NCBI GenBank assembly: GCA_964016885.1
Contig: OZ024743.1
Span: forward strand, 178,126,001-178,190,000
DNA from: Eledone cirrhosa
Lineage: Eukaryota
Length of the DNA stretch: 64,000 nt
Reading direction: 5' to 3'
Shown: piece by piece, positions 3,151 through 64,000 of the stretch
Position numbering within the stretch: position 1 is the first letter of the stretch
Layout of the letters: every line of letters begins with the position of its first letter
The notes under the pieces: generated by a model
Database searches by the model: none
What the model saw: only the letters and a program-made list of their open reading frames with translations
Told to the model about the DNA's origin: nothing
Made by a program: the position numbers and the translations under genes

Positions 3151-3885
3151 CTTATATATATATATATAAGAATATAAGACAGTATGTAGATAAAAAAAAA
3201 TACACAAAGAAGTATGTGTTCAATTATAGTGGATAGAATACCACCAGAGTGAAAAACATATTCTCTATATCGTCTACGAAAGGGATGGAGAATACATATC
3301 AATTAAAAGAATAAATTAAAATACACAAACCATCCGTATTATAACTATAACACCTGGACAAAAAAGGGAATGTTTCGCCATAAAAAGTGAAGTTTCCATA
3401 TTGTAGAAGGGTTTATCAACGTTTTATGGCGAAATATTCTCTTATTTGAGTTTGTCCAGGTGTTAAAGTTATAATTTTTTCTACTTTTTGGCACAAGGCC
3501 AGCAATTATCCAGTGCATTACTGGTACTTTATTTTATCGTCCCCGTAAGGATGAAAGGCAAAGTTAACCTTGTTATAGTTATAATACGGATGGTTTGTGC
3601 ATTTAAATTTATTCTTTTAATTGGTATGTTTTCTCCATTCCTTTCGTAGACAATATGTTTTATACTCTGGTGGTACTCTATCCACTATAATTGAACACAT
3701 ACCTCTTTGTGTATGTTTCTCTATATACTGTCTATATAGTCTCTTATAAAGAGCCCGGATTCTATTCATTGAGCTCATTAATTTATAGGTGATTAACGTG
3801 AGTCTGTAACTCCGTTTTTTAATTTGATATATATATACCATCATCGTTTAGCGTGGAAGATGGGCATTAAACGATGATGATGATG

Positions 3886-3937
<52 letters not shown>

Positions 3938-3941
<4 letters not shown>

Positions 3942-4189
3942 CAAATAAAGATTCAGCGAGAATCGCATTTCGGCGGGCAGGAAAAGCGAAGCGAAACGCA
4001 AAAATCAGAAATGATACTGGCAAAGTGCTCAATAGTTAAAAACCAGAGCTAAACAATGTGTTAAGAAGCCATACAAAACTAAAAAGGTGGCCAAGAAGGC
4101 ATTAACCACCCAAGCCAAAAAACAAATCAAGCTAAACAGGCCAAAACAAAATAAATGATAAAAAATAAATGATAACCAGACCTGGACTC

Positions 4190-4192
<3 letters not shown>
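3938..4192 (-). repeat. truncated copy of the non-coding family at 52770-53270
   Basis: Near-identical reverse complement of 53017-53270, between (TA)n and (TG)n. Confidence 0.85.
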
Positions 4193-9359: not shown

Positions 9360-9362
<3 letters not shown>

Positions 9363-9603
9363 AATGAATAATAACAGGTAGACATCATAAAAAGGTAATT
9401 TATTCTGTGTGCTTACAAATGTTTCCACAGTGGTTATACAGCCTAGTTATGCTATGTGCAAATTTATAACTATTTGCAAAACTCAATTATCAAATGCTGT
9501 GACCACTGTATCATCAGTGCAGAATGGTTAAAATGTAAAATGTAAATACCCTTAAGTGAGGTTATTGGGGAAGTTAGGGTAGAAAAGAAAGAGAGAAAAG
9601 AAG

Positions 9604-9655
<52 letters not shown>

Positions 9656-11245
9656 GGGGTTGGAGAAATGGGAGAGAGTGGTTTGTAGATATCTTAATCA
9701 AAATGATGTGGTAGGGGTTTTATTTTACTGGTTACTCTTAAGCGATGCGTTGATAGTCAAGGTTGGAATTATTTATTGCCACAGAGGGCAGGTTCATAGT
9801 TGTGGAGAAGGAGGGAGGTGGACCTAGGGTGAGAGTGAGAGAGAGGGGGTGGATAGAGAGGGAGAGATAGAGAGGGGACATACGAAAGCCATGGGATGGG
9901 TGTACATTGAGTTCATAGTAGTAGGCTACAAATTGCACTAAGTTTCCATTTATAGTGATAAGCAGGGTATTGTCTTGTAGAGTGGGGGAAGAGAAAGTGG
10001 TTAGCTAGAAAGCAATGTTATAGTTACGGGTTCGAATGTTAAGTTATTTTATAGTGAAAGAATTTAGCCTTCAGTTTGTGGTTGCAGTATAATGATCGTT
10101 CGATTCTCTCATTTAGTAATTTATTTTTTGATTTTAAGATGTAAAAGAGTTCAAGGTTACATAACCTACAGTACTTCAATCCACTCCGATATGCACTAGC
10201 GCTGGAAAGTATATCCCATTTCAAGGTGAACTGTTGGTTGCGTTCACGGAGTTGCCAGGTCTTGTTGGCGAGCGTGGTCACAAAACGGTGATTAGGATGT
10301 TTAATTGAGAATCGATGACGATACCAGCGAGATTTAAAGGAGGTAGTGGTAGACCCGATGTAATACCATTTCTGGTCGTTCGATTCAACAGTGCATTGGT
10401 AAACAATGTTGGACTTTAGGCATTTATTCTTCAATGGACATCTTTCAGGTAGGTGGCAGTTACAGTTTTTATTGTGGGTAGCGGGTATACCATGGATAGG
10501 TTGGGATAGCAGTACAGGTGGGTTGTGTAATACCCGTCTCCCATTTAGTGGTTGGGAGGCCGATATTACGTTATGCTCATCTGTTATTAACATATTTTGT
10601 TTTGTAGTCTTGTTTAATTGCTTTAAGTTAAGTTTTTATGTATGATTCAAGGTTTGGTGCCGTGGAGTATGATAGTTTAATAGTTTTAGAGTTCAGAATG
10701 TTACTGTATTTATGGGAACTAGGGAAATGCTTGTTGATTAACTTAAAGAATGAAGGAGATAGTTTTGTACTAATCGAAGCATTATAAATGGGATTATACC
10801 AGATATACTTTCTACAACGTGATTTATTTGGTGATGATTTTCTATTATTAGTATGTCTGGTGGTACTGCGTGTGTGCGCTTGTATTTCAGTACCCCGGTT
10901 ACGTATTCTTTGATTTCGTGTAGACCTATGTGTGTTATGGAGATACTTATCAATGTATTCTATTGTATCCCGGTGGTCGGCATTCCTTAATTTATTATTA
11001 TAGTATTCAGCATGTTCACTGAAAATCTCAGAGTAAGACGATAGGCGAGAGATTCTAAGAGAAATACTACGGGGAACCGATTTGATTATGGAAAGTGGGT
11101 GGTTTGAGTTAAAATTGATATAGGTAAGGTTTTTCCGTAGCCTTTCAAGATTTTGGTTATTTAAGTTATTAACTAATAAGAGCCCGTCATCTCTATATAT
11201 TCACCCCTGTAGATTACTAAATTTACCATGTAGTATGTGGGCTAT
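9360..11245 (-). mobile_element. Naiad-type PLE fragment (RT to GIY-YIG, 3' UTR, HHR)
   Basis: IYRDDGL at ~11190. ORF 10039..10593 has CNCHLPERCPLKNKC, IVYQC..YYIG, CRLCNLE and CNH. Confidence 0.88.
9402..9525 (-). ncRNA. HHR with long stem II
   Basis: CTGATGA-TACAGTGGT..ACCACTGTG-GAAA-CATTTG-TA. Stem I is imperfect. Confidence 0.7.
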
Positions 11246-11459
11246 GTAAATTCCCACAAGATCGGTGACCTCTGCTGAGTCGTTGGAGCCCATGGTAATG
11301 TCGAAGTTTGTGGGTCTGTCTTTACGTTCCCAGTAGCAGTTACCAAACTTGTCAGCTTTATCTCCCCTGTTTGCTGAAAATTTAAAGTAAGTGAGACTGT
11401 CACTACTCTAAAACAATAGTGTAAGGTCTTCGAAATGATTTTAATTAAGCATACAGTGT

Positions 11460-11567
<108 letters not shown>

Positions 11568-21110: not shown

Positions 21111-21409
21111 TATAACATGCTCAAAAGTGAGAAAGAATTGATTCCTCTTCATGGATATAGAATTACAGATATTTTTCGATGGGAGAAAGGAGATGTTTTT
21201 CCCAATGGTGCTAACCAGGTTCATAAAAATCTTCCTTTTATCTCCACAGGTTTGTCTGCAAATTATTATTGATTCCTTTTAAAGCTATTAAATAGGATCA
21301 AGGCCTCATAGAGATAAGCGAATGTTAGTTCGAGATATCCAGCTATTTATTTTGTCCAACAATTTTAATGACAACACAAAGTCAGGCGGGGACAACCTAT
21401 TTTAAGCTG

Positions 21410-21965
21410 TAGGCCACATATAGGGTATAGCTCAATATCAGGCAGGCCACATATAGTATATAGCTCATCATGAGGCAAGCCACATATAGAATATAATCTC
21501 TTAAAAGGCGGGCCACATATAGAATATAGCTCATCATGAGGCAAGCCACATATAGAATATAACCTCTTATAAGGTGGACCACATATAGAATATAGCTCAT
21601 TATAAGACAGGCCACATATAGACTATAGCTCATCATGAGGCAAGCCACATATAAGATATAGCTCATTATAAGGTGGGCCACATATAAGATATAGCTCATT
21701 ATAAGACAGGCCACATATAGTATATAGCTCTTCATAAGGCAGGCCACATATAAGATATAGCTCATTATAAGGTGGGCCATATTTACAATGTAGCCCATTA
21801 TAAGGCCACATATAGAATATAGTTCATCATAAGGTGGGCCACATATAGAATACAGCTCTTCATAAGGCAGGTTACATATACTATAGTATATTATAAGGTG
21901 GGCCATATATATATATATGATATAGCTCATTATAAGGTGGACCATATATAGAATATAGCTCAATA
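21410..21965. repeat. ~33-bp minisatellite
   Basis: About 16 copies of GGCCACATATAGAATATAGCTCATTATAAGGCA. Confidence 0.9.
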
Positions 21966-21999
21966 TAAAAACATTTCAAGACCTTTTTTCAAAAAAAAG

Positions 22000-25756: not shown

Positions 25757-28700
25757 ATCATCATCATCATCGTTTAACGTCTATCTTCCACGTTAGCATG
25801 GGTTTAGACGGGAATTGTTCCACTTGAGGCAAGATTGGTCGTCTCACTCGTATAGGACTGTCTGGCGGGTTTTCTACGGTTGGATGCCCTTCCTAACACC
25901 AACCACGTTTACAGTGTGGACTGGGGGGTTTTACCGTGTTACCTACACGGCCACATTACAGCGTGGACTGTGTTTTTTTTGGTTGTGACACCTACACGAC
26001 CTCATTTATTTAGGACTGGATGTTGTGGTACCAACATAACTTTACAGAGAGAGGGTGGTGTTGATGGGGGTGGGGAATCGGGGGAGGGGAAGGGGGTGTA
26101 TATTTGATTAATAGGTGCCTACTGACTGTAGGTTTCGCTTTGTACTTAGGCGAGGCGGGTTTTCTGTATTACTGCGTAGCGCCAAAGATCTCGGTCCAAT
26201 GACATTGTCTTAGAGATGTGTAAGTGTGTAAGGTCGGAATTTATGAAATCGTCCCAGGTTATTCTGGGTCTGCCTACTCTGTAACTTCCGTTAATTTTGA
26301 TCGCCTGCACTTTTTTTTTATACAGCTGTCGTCTTTCATGCGCATCACGTTACCATACCAACGTAGTCTTCTCTCGAATAAACAGCATCTGATCCCCCTT
26401 ATACCTAATTTCTCACTTAGTTCACTTTGCTGTTCACGTATAGAGGCATTAAATTAATTGACCAGGTCATGAAGGTCACAAAAAAAGTTATGGCGCAACT
26501 GATCTAGACGAAATGCAGTTTGGGTTTGTGTCGGGTAAAAGTACGACAACTACAGAAGTACTTAGCTAAAAGTAAACCCCTATACTTAGCTTTTGTTATG
26601 GCGCAACTGATCTAGACGAAATGCAGTTTGGGTTTGTGTCGGGTAAAAGTATGACAACTACAGAAGTACCTAGCTAAAAGTAAACCCCTATACTTAGCTT
26701 TTGTTGACTTGGAGAAAGCCTTTGACAGAGATCCCGCGCCATTATCTGGTGGGCCCTTAGAAAACTAGGGGTTGATGAATGGCTTGTGAGAGCTATACAA
26801 GCCATGTATAAAGAAACAGTCAGCAAGGTTAGAATTAACAACGAATATAGTGAAGAATTTAGCGTAAAAGTTGGTGTCCGTCAGGGCTCTGTCCTTAGCC
26901 CCTCATATGTATTATTGCCCTTCAGGCTATAACAGAGGATTTCAAGACCGGCTGCCCATGGGAATTTCTCTATGCAGATGATCTAACGCTCATAGCTGAA
27001 TCGATGGCTGAACTAGAGAAGAAATTCCATTCATCAACCCCTAGTTTTCTAAGGGCCCACCAGATAATGGAGCGGGGTCTCTGTCAAAGGCTTTCTCCAA
27101 GTCAACAAAAGCTAAGTATAGGGGTTTACCTTTAGCTAGGTACTTCTCCTGTAGTTGTCGTACAAAGAAAAGGTCGTCTGTAGTACTTTTACTCGACACA
27201 AACCCAAACTGCATTTCGTCTAGATCAATTTTCTCTCTGATTAGTAAAGACAAAACCACGTTTATGGTATAAATGAAGTCGTAGACTAATATTCTATTAA
27301 GCTAAATATATTTGTTATAATTGATACTATTCAGAAAGACAAATAATAATAATCATGGCAATATCTGTATACAGCAACTACAACGGTACGCGATTGCGCC
27401 ATAACTTTTTCTGTGACCTTCATGACCTGGTCAATTAATTTAATGCCTCTATAGTTTCCTCCATCTAGTGCATCTCCTTTACCCTTGTAGCAGTTAATGA
27501 TGATGCTGCTACGCCAGTCATTAGGTATGACTCCGTTCTGTATGACTTGGTTTACTATCCGGGTGACCATAGTGTGTCCCACCGTTCCAGATGCTTTCAG
27601 CATTTCAGCAACTATCTCCGAAGGCCCAGCTGTCTTGCTTGTCTTCATATCTTTGATTGCCTTACTTATTATACTACCTTCAACTTGCACTGCTGGTCTC
27701 TCTATTGGATCGATGTGGGGCAGACTATCTTTGTCACATTTATTCTCCTCATTTAGTAGCCTCTCGTAGTGACATTTCCAAACTATCTTCTTATCAGCGT
27801 CAGTGATGGAAAGTACACCATCATCATTAAGGACACACTTCTCCCCGACAATATCACGGTTGACACATTGCCTAACAATCCTGAACACCTCACGTTTTTG
27901 GTCCTCGCGTTGTAGAACATGCTTGAACTTTCTTTCCTCTGCTTCCCTTCTTGCAAAGTACACTTGTACCCTAGCTTCCCTCCTGGCCACTTGATAATGT
28001 TCTCTACTTCCTCCCATCACGCCATACTTTCCAAGCCTGCTTTTTGGCCTTGATTGACTCCTCCACCTTACTGTTCCACCACCAAGTTACTCTCCTCCTG
28101 CCTATAGGTCTGCTCCAGCCACAGATTTCATCAAAGGTTAACTTTCAGGAATTCCCACTGTTCCTCTATATTGTACGACTCTAATTGCTCTTCCTGACTG
28201 TCAAAAGCATCAAGTAATATGCTTTTAAATTTATTACTGGCTGTGGGGTCCTTTAACTTCCATATTCTTCTCCTTAGGGTAGTCCTCCTCTGTTGTCGAG
28301 TACGTCTCGTCCTGACTAAGAGGTCGCTAACTATGAGGCTATGCTGGGAGGTGCATTCTTCATGAGGGAGGGATTTAGTGTTTACAACAGACACTCTGTC
28401 ACGTCTTCTGGTAAGGATATAATCTATCTGACTGGCATGTTCCCCTGATCTATAGGTGATCAAGTGATTGTCTCCTTTTTTGAAGTTTGTGTTACAGATA
28501 GTTAGGTTATTTGCGTCACAGAATTCCAGGATTCTGGAGCCCTCCTCATTTCTAGTACCAAACCCATAGCCTCCATGGATTCCGTCATAGCCGTCACAAT
28601 GTTGTCCAACATGACCATTTAGGTCACCAGCGATAATTATGTAGTCACTGTCGGTTATTTGGGAGGTAGTGAGCATTAACGACTCATAGAATCTGTCTTT

Positions 28701-29330
28701 TATAACACCAGGCAGTCCGGATTGGGGTGCATACGCGGATATTATTGTCACAGTAGTTCTATTTAGGACAAGTCTTATTTTAATTATTCTGTCGTTCACT
28801 CTATTTACGTCTATTATCTTATCTACCCATTTTTCTGCTAGCATGATTCCTACTCCACCCAGCCCATTGTTATTTCCCACCCAGAAAAGTTTATAGCATC
28901 GTTTTTTACCCACAATGAATCTAGCAGACCCACCCCTCCACTTGATCTCTTGAATACAGCAAACATCAACTTCCTTACGTTCAAGCATCTCTACAACCTC
29001 GTTAGAGCGACTTTTTAAAGTGCCTACATTCATGGTACCAACTCTGAAGTTTTGCATTGCGTTTGGTGGGTGGGAAGGATGAGGCGCAGGGAGGGGTGGG
29101 GGAGATGGGGTTATGTTAGCCATCCGCGGTCGAAATAAAGAGAAGGATTCTCGTCCGGCAACATGAGGTGAATTTATCTTTATCTTTGACATTGTCATAG
29201 AGTGTCCAGATTTTCAGACTCTCCAAAACTCCATAGTCCATCTAGCATATCGAAAAGCAACCAGGTCTAAACTTAAGAAGTGATAGCCCAGGCGGTGGTT
29301 TTATTAAAGAGATTGGTAGGAGAAACATAT
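25757..29330 (-). mobile_element. near full-length, rearranged RTE-clade LINE (APE endonuclease plus RT)
   Basis: ORF 28131..29198 has NVGTL, CIQE, SAYAPQ, GDLNGH, IDYIL and QHSL. RT pieces at 27331-28020 and 27041-27259. The YADD-containing segment 26442-27030 is inverted. The 3' UTR ends in an (ATG)n tail at ~25760. Confidence 0.92.
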
Positions 29331-46056: not shown

Positions 46057-46496
46057 TTGTAATGTTAATGGGAAATGAACATGCTGTATGATAAAGTCAG
46101 ATGTTCCTATGGTGGTTAGTGAAGTTTGTTTTGATTGGTGGATTAATTCATAGGGATATTTTTGCCTGTAATGTCTGTGTGTGTGGAGAGGGGGGCTGAT
46201 AAGTTGGTGATGCCGGCCGTAGGTTGAAGTGGGTGGCAGTGTGGGGGTGCTGGTTGTCGGTAGACAGTTTGGCATGTAGATGTGGCTGATTTTTGTGTGT
46301 GGATGTGGTGTCGTGGTTTATGATAAGTATGAAAGGCTGCAGAGTTTATGGTGGGGTGGGTGATATTTGTGGTAGTGGGCTGTTAAGGGGCTCTTTCTAT
46401 AAGGAGTTAATGTTCTCATTGTATGTAAAAGCACATAAATACATATATACACACACAGCCTGACAAATATATTGTATACATATACATGTGTGTGTA

Positions 46497-46531
<35 letters not shown>

Positions 46532-46532
<1 letters not shown>

Positions 46533-47313
46533 AACATAAATCATCGATATTCGCATTTCGGCCCACGAAATAACGAAAAACAACCTCCGAGATGCGCGGC
46601 AAGTGCTCAATGATTCAGATGAACCAGAGCTATAACAGACGTTAAAGGCCAAACACACTCAGATGATGGTTAAACAATCATTCGGATAGCCAAAAAAACG
46701 ATCAAGTAATTCGGGTATTGAAAATTTACCCGGACCCCTGGAAGGTTGGTAAAATCCAGTATATGGGTTTCTGCGACTCCTAAATCAAGTACCGTACGCT
46801 TACATAAATAATGTCAGGCTTCTGGTAAGATGATTGAACAAGGAAGCCACTTTCTCAACAGGTTTTAGTTCAATGTTAATACAAGGACTGACTATTGCTG
46901 ACCCCACGTGGGGATCAGCAAGGGAGGCAACCCCTATATCAGGCGAATGAATTCAGTTGTGTATATTTTTGCAAGAATGCAAAAACATCACAAATCGAAT
47001 AGAGTTCTCAACAGAAGGGTTAAAATTAACATAAGCCATTCATCAGTTAATAGAATCAACTAAAAAATCAAGAAAATTAACTGGTCAATAGCTAGAGTCT
47101 GGAGAATAATACAAACATAAATTATCGAGATTCGCATTTCGGCCCACGAAATAACGAAAAACAACCTCCGAGATGTGCGGCAAGTGCTCAATGATTCAGA
47201 TGAACCAGAGCTATAACAAACGTTAAAGGCCAAACACACTGAGACGATGGTTAAACAATCATTCGCATAGCCAAAAAAACGATCAAGTAATTCGGGTATT
47301 GAAAATTTACCCG
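46532..47313 (-). mobile_element. non-coding retro-unit, 581-bp period, about 1.35 copies
   Basis: 46532-46732 is repeated at 47113-47313. Contains the variant HHR. Confidence 0.8.
46728..46863 (-). ncRNA. U3-A8 variant hammerhead ribozyme
   Basis: ACCTG-TTGAGAA-long stem II (GTGGC.TCCT/AGGAGTCGC)-GAAA-CCC..CTGGA/TCCAG-GGG-TC-CGGGT. Confidence 0.7.
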
Positions 47314-48695: not shown

Positions 48696-49159
48696 ATTAA
48701 ATAAATGGAAAACTATATTTATAAAACCATATTTATTTCATTATATATATTTCGGGGATATCATATTAACAATATGCTATGCCTTCATCAGACAAAATAC
48801 AATATAAACAGTTTTATAGATAAATATATTCGACATACCGTAATAAACATCAACTTCATTTGAAGAGGTTTACGCTAGCAGTGAAAATACAGAGAGAAAG
48901 AAAGAGAAAAAGAAAAGAGGGAAAAAAAAAAGAAAGAAAGACAAAACGAAGAAAAGGAAGAAAAAGAAGAAAAAGAAAAAGAAGAAATGCATGGGACAAA
49001 ATAGAGAGATGGAAAAATAGATAAAGCGAAGAGCTTCATGTAAAGAGACAGAAAGATATATATATATATATAGAGAGAGGAAATAGAGATAGATACATAT
49101 ATATATATAGAAAATTAGGTAGTGGGAGGTCATTTTGAGTAAGTGTATCAATGATACAT

Positions 49160-49190
<31 letters not shown>

Positions 49191-52078
49191 GCTCAAGTAT
49201 TAATGTAAGGGAGATATATAGAGATATATAGAGAGATATAGAGAGAGAAAAAAATTTAAAAATAGCCAGACATATTCGAGGCGTAGAAAACCCTATGTTT
49301 TAATGTATTAGTATTTATAAAACTTACACTATATTGTAAATATCAGTATTCCTGAATGAAACAAGTATTCACAATGTGTGAAAATTCATTATCTTATGTT
49401 TAGTTTTAAACAATTCACATGTTTATGTGACAGCTACAAACATCAATGTGAATCCAACTGATTCACTCCGCAAACTCTAAGTTACCGGAAAACATTCTCA
49501 ATGTGGTATAAAAATTTGAGCGTATTATTATTCTTGCGATTACTCTACAAGATTATCTATCAAGCAGAAATAGAGAGCAGATTTCAATATACTAATCGAA
49601 AATATATATTATATAATATATTATATTATAAACAAAGATAACAATAATAATAAAAATATATAAAAATATAGAATAGAAAACTAAAAAAATATTACGAAAG
49701 AATATTACATAATAAAAATATTGGATATTAAAAATACTACGTATTAAAAAATATTACGTATTAAAAATTTACATATAAAAATATTAAAAATAAAATAAAA
49801 ATAAAAATATTATAGAATACTACAATACTAAAAGAATAAAAATAAAAATAAAAATAAAAATAAAAATGAAAATAAAAATAAACCACAAAGAACAACCCTT
49901 CAAAGTTAATTGACAATATATTGCCAAGTTCATTACAAGACAAAGCCAAAAATTATCTATCAAATCACATCTAGCAAAGAATATCGCAAAAAGATTATGA
50001 TGTCCAATAATGTCTACATATGTTCCTATATTTAATATAGAAGTTTATCTAGTGTAAGGTTAATTCAAAAAATTTGGAGCATCGGCTTTTAGGGTAGCTT
50101 AATTTTTCATGAGGAATGTTTAGATAAAAATAAAAATAAAAATAAAAATAAATAAAATAAAATAAACAATAAAAAGAGTAAAAAGAGGGAATCAAAGATT
50201 TAGGAATCAAAAGATTTATCGGCTAGTTCTCATATAAATATAAATCAAACTAAATATACTACATTTTAAATTTAAATTTATATTTAAACGTTGAGTTTAA
50301 TCTATGTTTGCAACAACTGAATAAATTTGTCCGTAGGTTAAGGGAATTTTTAGATTTTAGTATAAAGAATATCTCCTCTGCGCAGAGGTCACATGTCTCA
50401 GAGGATGAATTAAAAGGAATCCCTCTTGAGACTATATTCCAAGCCGTCGAATATCTAACGTTATCTAGCTTAAGTTGCCAGAGTACCCCTGATAGTGCCG
50501 TTGAAGATTTTTTATTTGGATCTGTGAAAGAATTCTTGTGGTTATTATAGCTAATAATTCTTTTAACTAATTCTTTTAACTACGTCGGTTCCACATCGAC
50601 GGAATTTAAACTTCGCTATAATAACCACAAGAATTCTTTCACAGATCCAAATAAAAAATCTTCAACAGCACTATCAGGGGTACTCTGGCAACTTAAGCTA
50701 GATAACGTTAGATATTCGACGGCTTGGAATATAGTCTCAAGAGGGATTCCTTTTAATTCATCCTCTGAGACATGTGACCTCTGCGCAGAGGAGATATTCT
50801 TTATACTAAAATCTAAAAATTCCCTTAACCTACGGACAAATTTATTCAGTTGTTGCAAACATAGATTAAACTCAACGTTTAAATATAAATTTAAATTTAA
50901 AATGTAGTATATTTAGTTTGATTTATATTTATATGAGAACTAGCCGATAAATCTTTTGATTCCTAAATCTTTGATTCCCTCTTTTTACTCTTTTTATTGT
51001 TTATTTTATTTTATTTATTTTTATTTTTATTTTTATTTTTATTTTTATTTTTATTTTTATTTTTATTTTTATTTTTATTTTTATTTTTATTTTTATTTTT
51101 ATTTTTATCTAAACATTCCTCATGAAAAATTAAGCTACCCTAAAAGCCGATGCTCCAAATTTTTTGAATTAACCTTACACTAGATAAACTTCTATATTAA
51201 ATATAGGAACATATGTAGACATTATTGGACATCATAATCTTTTTGCGATATTCTTTGCTAGATGTGATTTGATAGATAATTTTTGGCTTTGTCTTGTAAT
51301 GAACTTGGCAATATATTGTCAATTAACTTTGAAGGGTTGTTCTTTGTGGTTTATTTTTATTTTCATTTTTATTTTTATTTTTATTTTTATTTTTATTTTT
51401 ATTTTTATTTTTATTTTTATTTTTATTTTTATTCTTTTCGTATTGTAGTATTCTATAATATTTTTATTTTTTATTTTATTTTTAATATTTTTATATGTAA
51501 ATTTTTAATACGTAATATTTTTTAATACGTAGTATTTTTAATATGCAATATTTTTATTATGTAATATTCTTTCGTAATATTTTTTTAGTTTTCTATTCTA
51601 TATTTTTATATATTTTTATTATTATTGTTATCTTTGTTTATAATATAATATATTATATAATATATATTTTCGATTAGTATATTGAAATCTGCTCTCTATT
51701 TCTGCTTGATAGATAATCTTGTAGAGTAATCGCAAGAATAATAATACGCTCAAATTTTTATACCACATTGAGAATGTTTTCCGGTAACCTAGAGTTTGCG
51801 GAGTGAATCAGTTGGATTCACATTGATGTTTGTAGCTGTCACATAAACATGTGAATTTTTTAAAACTAAACATAAGATAATGAATTTTCACACATTGTGA
51901 ATACTTGTTTCATTCAGGAATACTGATATTTACAATATAGTGTAAGTTTTATAAATACTAATACATTAAAACATAGGGTTTTCTACGCCTCGAATATGTC
52001 TGGCTATTTTTAAATTTTTTTCTCTCTATATATCTCTCTATATCTCTCTATATATCTCCCTTACATTAATACTTGAGC

Positions 52079-52117
<39 letters not shown>

Positions 52118-52680: not shown

Positions 52681-52897
52681 TATATATATATATATATATA
52701 ATATAGAAATGGCTTCTACAGGACTAGAACTGTTTCATTCAGAATATATATATATATTCTGAATGAAACATTCGATTTGTGCTATTTATGCTATTTTTTG
52801 CATGATATACACTTACTGAATTACTTTGCCAAAATCTGGGGTTATTCCCCTTGTGATTTCCACACGTGTCATTCACTTATTTGGTACAGAGCGAAAT

Positions 52898-53029
52898 ACC
52901 TGTTGATAACTTGATATTCCTTATTCGATCACTATACCCAAAGCTTATATTTTTAAGCAGACTGTATTTTGATTTAGGTGTCACAGAATCTCTACATCGG
53001 ATTTTAACAGCAATTCCGGGAGTCCAGGT
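52898..53029 (+). ncRNA. second U3-A8 variant HHR (A15.1 mutated to T) in unit 52770-53270
   Basis: ACCTG-TTGATAA-long stem II-GAAT-CTC..TCGGA/TCCGG-GAG-TC-CAGGT. Confidence 0.62.
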
Positions 53030-53413
53030 CTGGTTATCATTTATTTTTTATCATTTCTTTTGTTTTGACCTGTTTAGCTTGATTTGTTTTTTAGCTTGAG
53101 TGGTTAATGCCTTCTTGACCACCTTTTGAGTTTTGTATGGCTTCTTAACACATTGTTTAGCTCTGGTTTTTAACTATTGAGCACTTTGCCAGTATCATTT
53201 CTGATTTTTGCGTTTTGCTTCGCCTTTCCTGCCCGCCGAAATGCGATTCTCGCTGAATCTTTATTTGTATATATATATATATACAGATGCGAGAAAAACC
53301 ACAAACCTTCCATCTCTTCTATTTTTGAAAAGCACAAGATCTGCGAAACCCGTAAAGGAACAAAATAAATATCCTTAAAAAGACTCAAGTTGCATTTTCG
53401 ATTTCATTTTTTC

Positions 53414-55117
<1,704 letters not shown>

Positions 55118-58204: not shown

Positions 58205-59762
58205 AGCACGGTAGATAGGGCCATTAGAGACAAAAGACTGGCATGGAAGGCTTGGAAAGATGGTGGGAGTAGAGAAGGATACACAGCCGCTAAGAGAGAA
58301 GCTAGACGTCAGGTGTACTTAGCACGCAGGGAGGCTGAGAGTAGGAGGTTTTCCAATGTTCTGCGACGGGAAGATCAGAGACGTGCGGTGTTCCGCATTG
58401 CAAAGCAGTGTGTCAGTGCAAATCAGGATCTTGTTGGAGATAAGTGTGTCCGGAATGATGCCAGTGTATTTAGTGTCACGAATGATAAAAAAAAGGAGGC
58501 CTGGAAATGTCACTATGAGAGACTGATAAATGTGGAGAATGAATGGGACAGAGAGAAATTACCCCCAGTAGACCCGACAGAGGGACCAGCTATTGAGATT
58601 GACGAATATAGGGTCCAAGAGGCAATTAAGGAAATGAAGAATGGTAAGGCTGCTGGACCGTTGGGGATAGTTGCTTAGATGCTGAAGGCATCAGGAGAAG
58701 TAGGCACTAATTTGGTTGCATACATCACCAATCAAGCTATATATGGTGGTGTCATACCCAAAGACTGGTGCAGCAGTATTCTTATAAATTGCTACAAAGG
58801 TAAAGGGGATACTCTGGAGCAATTATAGAGGCATAAAACTGATGGATCAGGTTATGAAAGTGGCACAGAGAATATTAGAGCAACTGATTAGAGAAAGGGT
58901 CAAATTAGATGAGATGCAGATTGGATTTGTTCCTCGGAAAAGTACAACAGGTCCCCTCTTCTTAGTGAGACAACTACAAGAGAGGTTCTTAGAGAAGAAT
59001 AAGCCACTATACTTAGCTTTTGTTGACCTAGAGAAGGCCTTTGATAGGGTAACCCGATCTGTCATCTGCTGGTCCCTAAGGAAACTAGGTGTTGAGGAAT
59101 GGCTTGTGAGGACAGTGCAAGATATGTACAGGGGTGCTGTCAGTAAAGTGAGAGTAGGAATGGTGTTTAGTGAGGAATTCCAGATACAAGTAGGAGTACA
59201 TCTAGTAGTATCAAGAATAAGGGCGGGTTGGAATAAGTTTAGCGAACTGCTTCCTCTGTTGACAAAGAAGGGTTTCTCCCTGCATACGAAAGGGCGGTTA
59301 TATGATGCCGGTGTGAGATGCGCGATGCTGCATGGTAGTGAGACATGGGCGTCAACTGCAGAGGATATGCGACGACTGGAGAGAAATGAAGCAAGCATGC
59401 TCCGTTGAATGTGCAATGTCAATGTGCGTAAACAACCAAGCATAGATGTGTTGAGAAAGAAACTGGGTATAAGAGGGATAAGTTGGGGTGTGAATGAGAG
59501 AAGACTGAGATGGTATGGACACGTGATGCGCATGGAGGATGACCGCTGGGTAAAGAAGTGCCAAGAAATCCCAGTAGAAGGAAGACGCAGTAGAGGAAGA
59601 CCACATAAAACATGAGCGGAGGTGGTGAGAGCAGACCTCATATCGCTGAAACTCACGGAGGAGATGACGAAGGACCTTGACAAGCGGAGAGATGATGTGC
59701 TGAATAGGACCCGTCCCACCCTTGCAAGCAGGGAAAAGCTGACGTAAAATGATCATAATGAT
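58205..59762 (+). mobile_element. RTE LINE 3' half (second subfamily) with internal deletion of the catalytic region
   Basis: DLEKAFD; VGVH joined directly to ..SRIRAGW; RRLRWYGHVMR; ATG-like tail. Confidence 0.88.
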
Positions 59763-62016: not shown

Positions 62017-63866
62017 TCATCATCATCATCATCATCATCATTTAACGTCCATGTTCCACGCTTTGCATGGGTTTGGACGGGAATTTTCCCACTTGAGGCA
62101 AGAGTGGTTGTCTTGCTCGCATAGGACTGTCTGGCGTGTTTTCTACAGCTGGATGCCCTTCCTAACACCAACCACATTTACAGTGTGGGACTGGGAGGTT
62201 TTTACCGTGTTGCCTACACGGCCACATTACAGCGTGGACTGTCTGTTTTTTTTATCGTGACACCTACACGATCTCATTTGTTTCGGCCTGGATGTTGTGG
62301 CACCAACATAACTTTACATTGAAAGGGGCGGCGTGGATGGGGTGGGGGTAGTGGGACGGGGGTGTATTTTGTTAGAGATGCCTACTGACTGTAGTAGGTT
62401 TTACTTTGTATTTAGGTAAGGCGGGTCTTCTCTATTACTGAGTACCGCCAAAGATCTCGGTCCAGTGACATTGTCTTGGAGAGGTGTAAAAGTGTGAGGT
62501 CGGAATTTATCAGGTCGTCCCAGGTTCTTCTGGGTCTGCCTACTCCGTGGCTACCGTCTATCTTTATTGCCCTGCACTTTTTTATACAGCTGTCGTCTTT
62601 CATGCGCATCACGTGACCATACCAACGTAGCCTTCTCTCGAGTAAACAACATCTGATCCCTCTTATTTCTAATTTTTCCCTTAGTTCGTTTATGCTTTGC
62701 TGTTCACGTATATTACTATTACACAACCAGCGGAGCATGCAAGCTTCGTTCCTCTCTAGTCTGCGTATATCCTCTGCACACAATGCCCAGGTCTCACTGC
62801 CATGCAACATTGCTGTTCGTATGCAGGCATCATACAGCCTGCCTTTCATTTTTAGGGAGAACCCTTTAGCGGCTAATAGTGGTATAAGCTCTCTGAACTT
62901 TTTCCTTCCCGTTCTGACTCTAGCTACTGTACTTTCCGAGCACCCTCCCCCACTGCTGATTTTGTCACCCAGGTAACGGAAGCTGTCCACTATTTCTATA
63001 GAACCCTCTGCGCAATTGAAAGAGCTAGTATTTTGTTGGCACTTGCTGCTACTTATTGCACCAGAGCACTGGCCACATGTAAAATCTATGTTCTTAGTTA
63101 GCTTAACTGTGATCCCACTACATCTTTTATGCACCCATACTTTGCATTTGGGACATAAAATGGAGTTTCTACCTACGCCTTTCCTAAACACTGAGCAAGG
63201 CCATTTCCCGGAAGGAACCGGCGCCTTATTTTCTTTCCTACAAACTAGAACTTTAGTCTTAGCCAGGTTAATTTTAAGGCCTTTTGATTCTAGGCCGTGC
63301 TTCCATGTTTGGAATTTCTTCTCTAGCTCGGCCATTGATTCAGCTATGAGCGTTAGGTCATCTGGACAGCCGGTCTTGAACTCCATTGTTATAGCCTGAA
63401 GGGCAATAATAAATAGTAGGGGGCTAAGAACAGAGCCCTGATGAACACCAACTTTTACGCTAAACTCTTCACTATATTCATTGTTAATTCTAACCTTGCT
63501 GACTGTTTCTTTATACATGGCTTGTATAGCTCTCACAAGCCATTCATCAACACCTAGTTTTCTAAGAGCCCACCAGATAATGGAACGGGGGACTCTGTCG
63601 AAGGCCTTGTCCAAGTCGACAAAAGCTAAGTATAGGGGTTTACTTTTAGCTAGGTACTTCTCCTGTAGTTGTCGTACAATGAAAAGAGCGTCTGTGGTAC
63701 TTTTGCCTGACACAAACCCGAACTGCATTTCATCTAGATCAATTCTCTCTCTGATTAGTTGCGCTATTACTTTTTCCGTGACCTTCATGACCTGGTGGAT
63801 TAATTTAATGCCTCTATAGTTATTCCTATCTAGGGCGTCTCCTTTATCCTTGTAGCAGTTTATGCA
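62017..63866 (-). mobile_element. 5'-truncated RTE LINE
   Basis: ORF 62412..63965 encodes RT with GVHQGSVLSP, but WELLYA is deleted before DD. The 3' UTR matches 25770-26100 and ends in an (ATG)n tail. Confidence 0.92.
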
Positions 63867-64000
63867 TATTAACAGCTTATGCATATTAACGGCTGAGCAG
63901 CCTAATTTCAATTCCAGTACTGCCAATACTGGAATTGAACTATCAAGACAGTTGAGGTATGTCATACATCAATTCATGTATTTTATCTGATGAGGACGTA

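Follow-up and report, generated by a model that had tools for sequence, protein, structure and literature searches.

Introduction

Metazoan non-LTR retrozymes are non-coding, AT-rich elements in which every head-to-tail unit contains a type I hammerhead ribozyme; they reach thousands of copies, co-exist with Penelope-like elements (PLEs) and have well-folded monomers (PMC7229834; bioRxiv 10.64898/2026.07.22.740005). RNA circles have been demonstrated for some of them, while their copying back into genomes is only hypothesised (PMC7229834). It has already been proposed that retrozymes are non-autonomous PLE derivatives (bioRxiv 10.64898/2026.07.22.740005), and the role of the hammerhead in PLEs is stated to be unclear (PMC8557442). 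A U3-A8 pair within the hammerhead core is a compensatory natural variant, of which an engineered form is active in vitro (PMC3088659).

Here we describe an element from a window of the Eledone cirrhosa genome, the window being the whole 64,000-nucleotide stretch that was analysed. By its sequence the element matches a metazoan non-LTR retrozyme in the testable defining features save typical size: its unit of 581–612 nt exceeds the 170–400 nt typical of invertebrate retrozymes (PMC7229834) but falls inside the 51–972 range of Li et al. (bioRxiv 10.64898/2026.07.22.740005). Unlike the metazoan retrozymes described in these sources, it has a U3-A8 core, which a C3-G8 descriptor misses, and long helices II and III, and most of its copies are scattered partial tandems that share a single fixed 3′ end, internal to the unit and set in (TA)n. 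A decoy hairpin is predicted to keep its ribozyme blocked; for the circles of most metazoan retrozymes, by contrast, the prediction is a free ribozyme. While RNA circles are on record for the others, the present element is known here from DNA.

Further likenesses are found outside the retrozymes. The U3-A8 covariation and G10.1-C11.1 are shared with the Schistosoma Cercyon minimal hammerhead (PMC4209133) and with natural variants (PMC3088659), and an additional base separating position 9 from 10.1 is common to the element and the Schistosoma PLE ribozymes (PMC4209133). The latter, for which action as dimers is assumed, are of the minimal type, in contrast to the ~75-nt helix II and ~35-nt helix III domains of the element, which also has, unlike Schistosoma, an extra A before G12; a large helix III is known from fungal and protist PLE ribozymes. 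MRC1 of Chlamydomonas likewise forms pLTR-like partial tandems and multicopy head-to-tail insertions in a microsatellite target, but MRC1-type elements resemble the 3′ end of their autonomous partner, a likeness missing between the element and 86 PLE loci, and Chlamys elements are mostly devoid of hammerheads (PMC8557442). With PAc, a Poseidon PLE of Anolis, the element shares a probable internal start of reverse transcription downstream of the ribozyme and an AT-rich target; PAc differs in being coding, and in vitro it used mainly uncut RNA and gave no ends at the cut site (PMC11167929). New here are a long-helix U3-A8 ribozyme with a conserved decoy, a mapped putative internal start and a 5′-end footprint. 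A search of the open literature, judged from titles and the beginnings of abstracts, yielded no description of this family, which may already be deposited in Repbase or Dfam as an unclassified repeat.

Results and Discussion

Anatomy of the copies in the window

The copy at 46532-47313 comprises one 581-nt monomer and 201 nt of a second unit, thus ~1.34 units on the minus strand. Element positions 1-201 recur at 582-782 with 194/201 identical residues, which gives a period of 581. Homology opens at 47313 with CGGGT, i.e. at +1 after GTC. Since the flank ahead of 47313 (...TAGATATAT) is unlike its counterpart in front of the internal unit (...CCAGGGGTC), the copy begins precisely at this residue; it runs through a full monomer to the next GTC (46733/46732) and from there for 201 nt into the (TA)n tract. 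This is the anatomy given in the earlier note, which had also reported that the related copy at 3938-4192 starts about 8 nt upstream of its own GTC. The latter observation holds as well: this copy opens 8 nt ahead of the cut (CGGGAGTC, of which the first C is common to the (CA)n flank), a misfit with run-off from a cut end. It represents a different subfamily, denoted B, that is ~70% identical to family A of the 46532-47313 copy. A second subfamily B copy was not named in that note. All features are collected in Table 1. Contigs of the sequencing runs X1 and X4 (kind unrecorded) span the stretch; both the long-loop variant and the head-to-tail joint at 581 are present in them.

Table 1. Positions of the element, its ribozyme and the Penelope-like elements in the window.
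Feature	Position	Strand	Details and basis
Full 581-nt family A monomer	46733..47313	-	+1 after predicted cut to next GTC; self-alignment
Partial second unit	46532..46732	-	+1 to ~+201, ending at the fixed 3′ end of the family; 194/201 identical to first unit
(TA)n target tract	46495..46532		3′ end of the 46532-47313 copy; sequence
Type I hammerhead, U3-A8 variant	46728..46863	-	Three-way junction fold, alignment covariation; self-cleavage predicted
Helix I	46863-46859 with 46732-46728	-	ACCTG with CGGGT; hammerhead part
Core	46858-46852	-	TTGAGAA, then extra A; hammerhead part
Helix II	46850-46773	-	Long (~75 nt), then extra A; hammerhead part
GAAAC	46771-46767	-	Followed by long helix III (~35 nt); hammerhead part
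GTC, predicted cut	between 46733 and 46732	-	Hammerhead part
Decoy hairpin (predicted)	46712..46732, also 47313-47293	-	CGGGTA/TACCCG, competing with helix I; folding
Subfamily B copy	3938..4192	-	Predicted cut between 4185 and 4184; flanks (CA)n and (TA)n
Second subfamily B copy	52770..53270	+	Whole hammerhead 52898 to 53029, predicted cut after 53024
Hydra-clade PLE remnant	9360-11466	-	RT before GIY-YIG; type I hammerhead of the canonical C3-G8 kind, with its core at 9517 and the predicted cut after 9381
Neptune-type PLE 3′ end	53287-53418	+	Minimal U3-A8 hammerhead, core at 53325; L248 family by eye; adjoins subfamily B copy

Elsewhere in the window, very long and near-perfect nested inverted repeats are found at 49158-52111 and 53658-54712 (650 nt at 99%, 431 nt at 100% and 512 nt at 94%), which might represent a foldback element or else be an artefact of the assembly. 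Remnants of LINE type lie at 62412-63968(-), 58788-59408(+) and 28131-29213(-), with a reverse transcriptase (RT) with PHD-like finger, an RT fragment and an AP endonuclease, and a 33-nt minisatellite of ~17 copies occupies 21345-21968.

Family size and copy structure

The host genome comprises 3.0 Gb and is rich in (TA)n. A DNA search with the element returned 4,124 first-look candidates, of which 40 were scored; the 39 best-scoring places other than the 46532-47313 copy are 95-97% identical to it over 764-782 nt. A 22-nt ribozyme pattern, with at most one mismatch allowed, occurs at 3,295 genomic places (control: 0), so that the family holds about 3,300 ribozyme copies. Exact patterns of the 3′ end plus (TA) occur at 128, 218 and 195 places for family A and at 299 for subfamily B. 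Unit lengths are 581 (A), ~604 (long-loop A) and ~612 nt (B). Thirty loci chosen by the ribozyme pattern fall into several subfamilies, 65-98% identical to A, and nearly all share the position of the 3′ end.

The copies are dispersed and sited in microsatellites; the 3′ end is fixed and the 5′ ends are ragged, as in partial-tandem (pLTR-like) insertions. They are flanked by (TA)n, in which the large target-site duplications known from some retrozymes would be hidden from the eye. Two whole ribozymes are present in 9/149 family A copies, and tandem arrays of 4.9 and 6.7 units were found as well. The element's own units are ~3% apart. In three loci (L072, L077, L108) one and the same end of a SINE-like repeat lies at monomer position 502, which points to a recurrent target or else to a chimera that was mobilised as a whole. 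A second abundant PLE-like end, GAAAC...GGGGTC followed after ~11 nt by (TA)n (L173:~850-940, L156, L007, L059, L086), shares TA tracts with the element, at times as an inverted pair. A tRNA was looked for in the element and none was found.

The hammerhead ribozyme

Three helices surround the core of the ribozyme and helix I is open, as is the case in type I hammerheads. When the 147-nt region is folded, its structure of lowest energy is the three-way junction, with an energy no better than that of shuffles (z -0.2). For the alignment, 36 of 37 non-redundant copies were employed (L075 was left out). U3 is found in 36/36 sequences, G5 and A6 in 35/36 each; position 8 is A (32/36) or G (3/36), N7 takes G, T, C or A, and there is one extra base on either side of helix II. 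The resulting pattern TTGA-N-(A/G)-A, GAAA, TC matches the type I hammerhead core with position 3 pairing with position 8. In this alignment 95.9% of the cells are paired, and two-sided changes occur in 7/28 pairs, being compensatory in helices II and III. Neither the paired percentage nor the covariation score was reached by any of 500 shuffles, a test in which related sequences can beat shuffles, and slid controls were 28-46% paired. Helix I changes on one side only and is thus less strongly supported than helices II and III. From its fold, near-invariant core and covariation, the motif is a real type I hammerhead with a U3-A8 core that is predicted to cleave itself, which bears out the variant ribozyme postulated beforehand.

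Among the matches listed in an Rfam scan (150 of 171), neither a ribozyme nor any other family attains the gathering score, owing to the long helices and the U3-A8 core. Readings of the GTC region as a type II or III hammerhead, a hairpin ribozyme or an HDV-like ribozyme were rejected by eye, as there is no CUGAnGA after a local hairpin and the pairings show no covariation. A canonical-looking CTGATGA near monomer position 268 is missing from subfamily B.

A conserved decoy hairpin predicted to compete with helix I

Across subfamilies, a decoy arm ACCCG/ACCTG (ACCYG) tracks CGGGT/CAGGT and pairs with +1..+5, while loops of 11 to 96 nt are found. In L175, L179 and L170 a (TA)n tract is expanded or inserted within this loop; the stem arms persist and the loop measures 60-96 nt. 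For the decoy, the predicted pairing probability is at least 0.84 as soon as transcription has passed +21, and 0.98 in the circular monomer. Helix I attains 0.09-0.27 if the RNA ends at +5..+19, no more than 0.02 from +21 onwards, and 0.00 in 8/8 circular monomers. As helix I pairing is lost once the decoy arm has been transcribed, cutting is predicted to be possible only briefly, and the conserved hairpin is predicted to switch the ribozyme off. When the copied part was forced open in five circular monomers, helix I rose only to 0.00-0.09 in these calculations of secondary structure; re-activation of the ribozyme on a circle through unzipping by the RT finds little support in folding.

The fixed 3′ end

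Within the A unit the 3′ end is fixed at ~+200..+208, and in subfamily B it lies ~242 nt after the cut. Three types of 3′ junction are each present on all three common internal haplotypes (weak association at one marker, p 0.02). Because every junction type occurs on every common haplotype, the 3′ end is made anew at each insertion and not inherited. This agrees with the internal start that had been suggested earlier: the fixed end probably marks the point inside the unit at which reverse transcription begins, as has been shown in vitro for the Anolis PLE (PMC11167929).

Distribution of the 5′ ends

The 5′ ends were mapped in copies chosen solely by their 3′ end, namely the first 50 in chromosome order for each of the three family A patterns (150, or 149 after duplicate removal) and 50 of the 299 subfamily B copies. 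In family A, 26/149 ends fall at +1..+24, where 7.2 are expected with weighting for TA/AT microhomology (p 3e-9); the count is 28 if two in-loop ends of long-loop copies, at +28 and mapped into this interval, are included. The fine pattern consists of 0 ends at +1..+4 (1.0 expected), 17 at +5..+11 (1.9 expected) and 11 at +12..+24 (3.8 expected), with 4 at -24..-1 (5.7 expected). The first junction is reached by 122 copies, of which 99 run through it and 23 have their stop at +1..+24; of the 23 copies that get as far as the second junction, 5 stop there. Taken together, these stops include the two ends of long-loop copies at +28. The stop hazard at +1..+24 amounts to 4.2-fold background, and a 24-nt window as extreme anywhere arose in 0/300 simulations. 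In subfamily B, 10/50 ends lie in the interval (5.1-fold; as extreme in 2/300 simulations), and one of the 50 copies starts exactly at +1. The pile-up takes ~19% (A) to 35% (B) of the passes, whereas ~80% cross the junction. Starts 4-10 nt ahead of the cut are seen in 3/150 A copies and in the 3938-4192 copy.

Long-loop variants place 13 of the 19 ends within their first 70 nt at +1..+18 and none at the 3′ arm of the hairpin (~+40..+47). They stop oftener than the others (13/40 vs 23/131 passes), with a p value of 0.049 that is suggestive only. Among the coding PLEs examined as controls, 3/30 Neptune-type copies end at 0..+13 and 2/30 Hydra-type copies at +6 and +12.

According to the earlier note, 5′ ends should pile up at the GTC cut rather than being randomly distributed. 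The excess near the cut stands in both A and B, but not the exact position, as the peak lies at +5..+11; a start exactly at the cut is true of the 46532-47313 copy and atypical for the family. The pattern of family A is what run-off at a cut end would give if 4-15 nt were then trimmed away, and the pile-up is likely the footprint of ribozyme cleavage in vivo.

Coding Penelope-like elements and the candidate mobilising partner

By its sequence, the coding PLE at 9360-11466 is a Hydra element under the definitions of PMC8557442. Full Hydra-type copies contain the DKT, RWK and CxCX5C motifs, and 3′ ends of the family occur at two positions, 26 and ~165 nt behind the cut. In a search for GIY-YIG endonucleases (10,596 candidates, a ranked sample), the best 30 of 150 scored loci all have the endonuclease at the C-terminus and none at the N-terminus. 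Most of these 30 loci carry a CX2-5CxxC linker, by which they are named Neptune-type here, a motif that Nematis shares. At least five Neptune-type families (L217-L266) have a TTGA-N-AA core, as in the element. In one of them the distance from cut to 3′ end is 198-203 nt; given the subfamily B end at ~242 nt, this match in spacing may be chance. Neptune-type copies are 1.0-5.3% apart, with one family at 1.0%; the youngest Neptune-type protein has open frames of 844-938 aa (L248, L249). In one Neptune-type family (L225, L227, L243, L255, L261) GAAAC is replaced by GCAAC, an unusual A13C change.

Comparison of a 30-copy subfamily profile with 86 PLE loci, a ranked sample of tens of thousands, revealed no sequence likeness to a coding PLE end; the only match, L187, is presumably a neighbouring copy of the element. 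The assignment of a partner hence rests on ribozyme type and target, and no direct parent PLE was found among the PLE loci and upstream flanks examined. By analogy, a Neptune-type PLE is, with slightly better than even odds, the mobilising partner. It is unlikely that a Hydra-type element or a Naiad takes this role instead. Of these, Hydra is the possible though rather improbable one: its elements are young (copies 2.2% apart) and abundant (60,675 candidates), with open frames of 784-786 aa in three copies, a (TA)n target, and long helices II and III as in the ribozyme of the element, but the Hydra ribozyme has the canonical C3-G8 core. The Naiad RT and endonuclease, held plausible in the earlier note, are a most improbable choice. 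Naiads do use (TA)n and are recorded from Octopus (PMC8557442 supplement); however, the 30 GIY-YIG loci are C-terminal throughout, the coding PLE of the window is Hydra-type, and Naiads, according to PMC8557442, have no canonical hammerheads, their cephalopod copies being remnants that have long been inactive.

Proposed life cycle and alternative explanations

Judged by its sequence, the element is classed as a non-LTR retrozyme, or non-autonomous Penelope-like element; the retrozyme-like character assumed at the outset thus holds, with non-coding tandem units that contain a hammerhead. The 46532-47313 copy is best explained as a young, 5′-truncated copy of such a retroelement. Some molecules of its RNA are likely cleaved at GUC, and a PLE RT/endonuclease, probably of Neptune type, likely copies the RNA into (TA)n. 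We put the probability of this reading as a whole at roughly 0.6. From the observed anatomy, copy number, conserved fold and end distributions, we infer expression, cleavage, partner and template as follows. Tandem copies would be transcribed, and the hammerhead could fold only until the decoy arm is transcribed; with the folding window closed by this arm, only some sites would be cut, and doubly cut RNA might be ligated to a circle. The PLE protein would nick (TA)n and begin reverse transcription at ~+200 to +208, copying back across uncut or re-ligated junctions in ~80% of passes and falling off randomly, or at a cut 5′ end in ~15-30% of passes above background. The last 4-15 nt would usually be lost as the cDNA end joins by TA microhomology. 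The 46532-47313 copy would be the rare case of no loss, its upstream site having been cut and the downstream site left intact.

Several results speak against this reading, among them the 0/149 family A ends at +1..+4, with a +5..+11 peak that is also where an RT would pause on an uncut ribozyme, the few starts ahead of the cut, and the predicted helix I pairing of just 0.09-0.27 in nascent RNA, as well as the missing likeness to the 86 PLE loci, the spacing in subfamily B and the marker discordance given below. The first of these would be accounted for if the tandem transcript were never cut and the pile-up arose from pausing at the 3′ edge of the ribozyme, i.e. at the edge of helix I, or from a transcription start near +1..+5. 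Precedents for uncut RNA are the Anolis PLE described above and the 8/9 Xenopus retrozyme dimers that stayed uncleaved in vitro (bioRxiv 10.64898/2026.07.22.740005). We nevertheless consider an absence of cleavage improbable, at about one chance in five. Helix I has just 5 bp including a G.U pair and is predicted to be unformed in full-length RNA, and stronger hairpins show no pile-up, as seen on the 3′ side of a GC-rich control hairpin (4 ends vs 4.3 expected) and at the helix II edge (2 vs 5.6). Furthermore, the catalytic core is conserved across subfamilies though N7 and the helices vary, and TA microhomology is commoner at the pile-up ends (21/26 vs 72/123), which fits trimming of a run-off end. 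Far less probable still are a DNA-level satellite and the reading of the unit as a mere UTR or pLTR belonging to some longer PLE with coding capacity. The layout of the unit does resemble that of the local coding PLE ends (ribozyme, 26-200 nt, (TA)n), and a few arrays look as if homogenised at the DNA level. Against this, the copies are dispersed with the ends described above, 99 of the 122 copies that reach the cut run on into the previous monomer rather than an ORF, and the longest stop-free frame of the element is 101 aa. A tblastn search with four PLE ORFs found none adjoining the 5′ end in the upstream flanks of 200 copies; same-strand matches lie only 670-1360 nt away, and the three nearest, upon inspection, are separate elements, each ending in its own TA-rich junction. 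With no contiguous same-strand match in 200 flanks, derivation from the UTR of a coding PLE fails, and the unit is non-coding and self-contained, as had been claimed.

Within the preferred reading, the nature of the RNA template has to be considered. A circle, formed by ligation of doubly cut RNA and copied by a PLE RT rolling round from the internal start, falls just short of an even chance; stops would then stem from linear monomers or re-opened circles. This is consistent with the blocked ribozyme of the circular fold (helix I 0.00 in 8/8 monomers), a monomer that folds better than shuffles (z -4.8), the low number of copies with two whole ribozymes (9/149) and the circles known for other metazoan retrozymes. 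The unit period is preserved across subfamilies 65-75% apart, so the tandems must be regenerated. The 581|1 junctions are seamless in 115/134 cases by BLAST, most others being end substitutions, after eight duplicate loci had been dropped. Adjacent units differ at 22/342 marker sites, where 104 would be expected for independent templates and 10.4 as background; the direction test for recurrent unit-to-unit differences is borderline (p 0.045). These markers disfavour template jumps between different molecules, but at twice the background they also tell a little against a template that is purely circular. The stops at the second junction (5 of 23) are not predicted by an intact circle, and helix I pairing reached only 0.00-0.09 with the copied part of five circular monomers opened. 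Linear sources exist in the 4.9- and 6.7-unit arrays, whose variants are mosaic and not periodic and are compatible with a circle or with DNA-level duplication alike. Partly uncut tandem RNA, which explains the 46532-47313 copy as well as a circle does, is a substantial possibility somewhat below even odds, and a template jump within one molecule appears improbable.

A more far-reaching idea is to regard the element as a viroid-like circular RNA parasite of 580-610 nt that exploits Neptune-type PLEs by means of a kinetic switch, in which the decoy would limit the time for cutting, the length of its loop would tune the frequency, and cutting would happen while the RNA is being transcribed, or a second time as the decoy is unzipped by the RT. 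This is speculative, and we hold it to be unlikely at about three chances in ten. If it were true, the genomic copies would record, base by base, the start of reverse transcription and the cut in vivo, and the genome itself would directly attest that hammerheads of the PLE type have a part in the cycle of retrotransposition. The 4-5-fold excess of 5′ ends behind the predicted cut in two subfamilies makes the role of the hammerhead testable on a 600-nt RNA, and the family supplies a mapped start site, a target and a candidate partner for the re-insertion of retrozymes. Abundant families would escape scans that look for short helices around a C3-G8 core, given that five Neptune-type families here use U3-A8.
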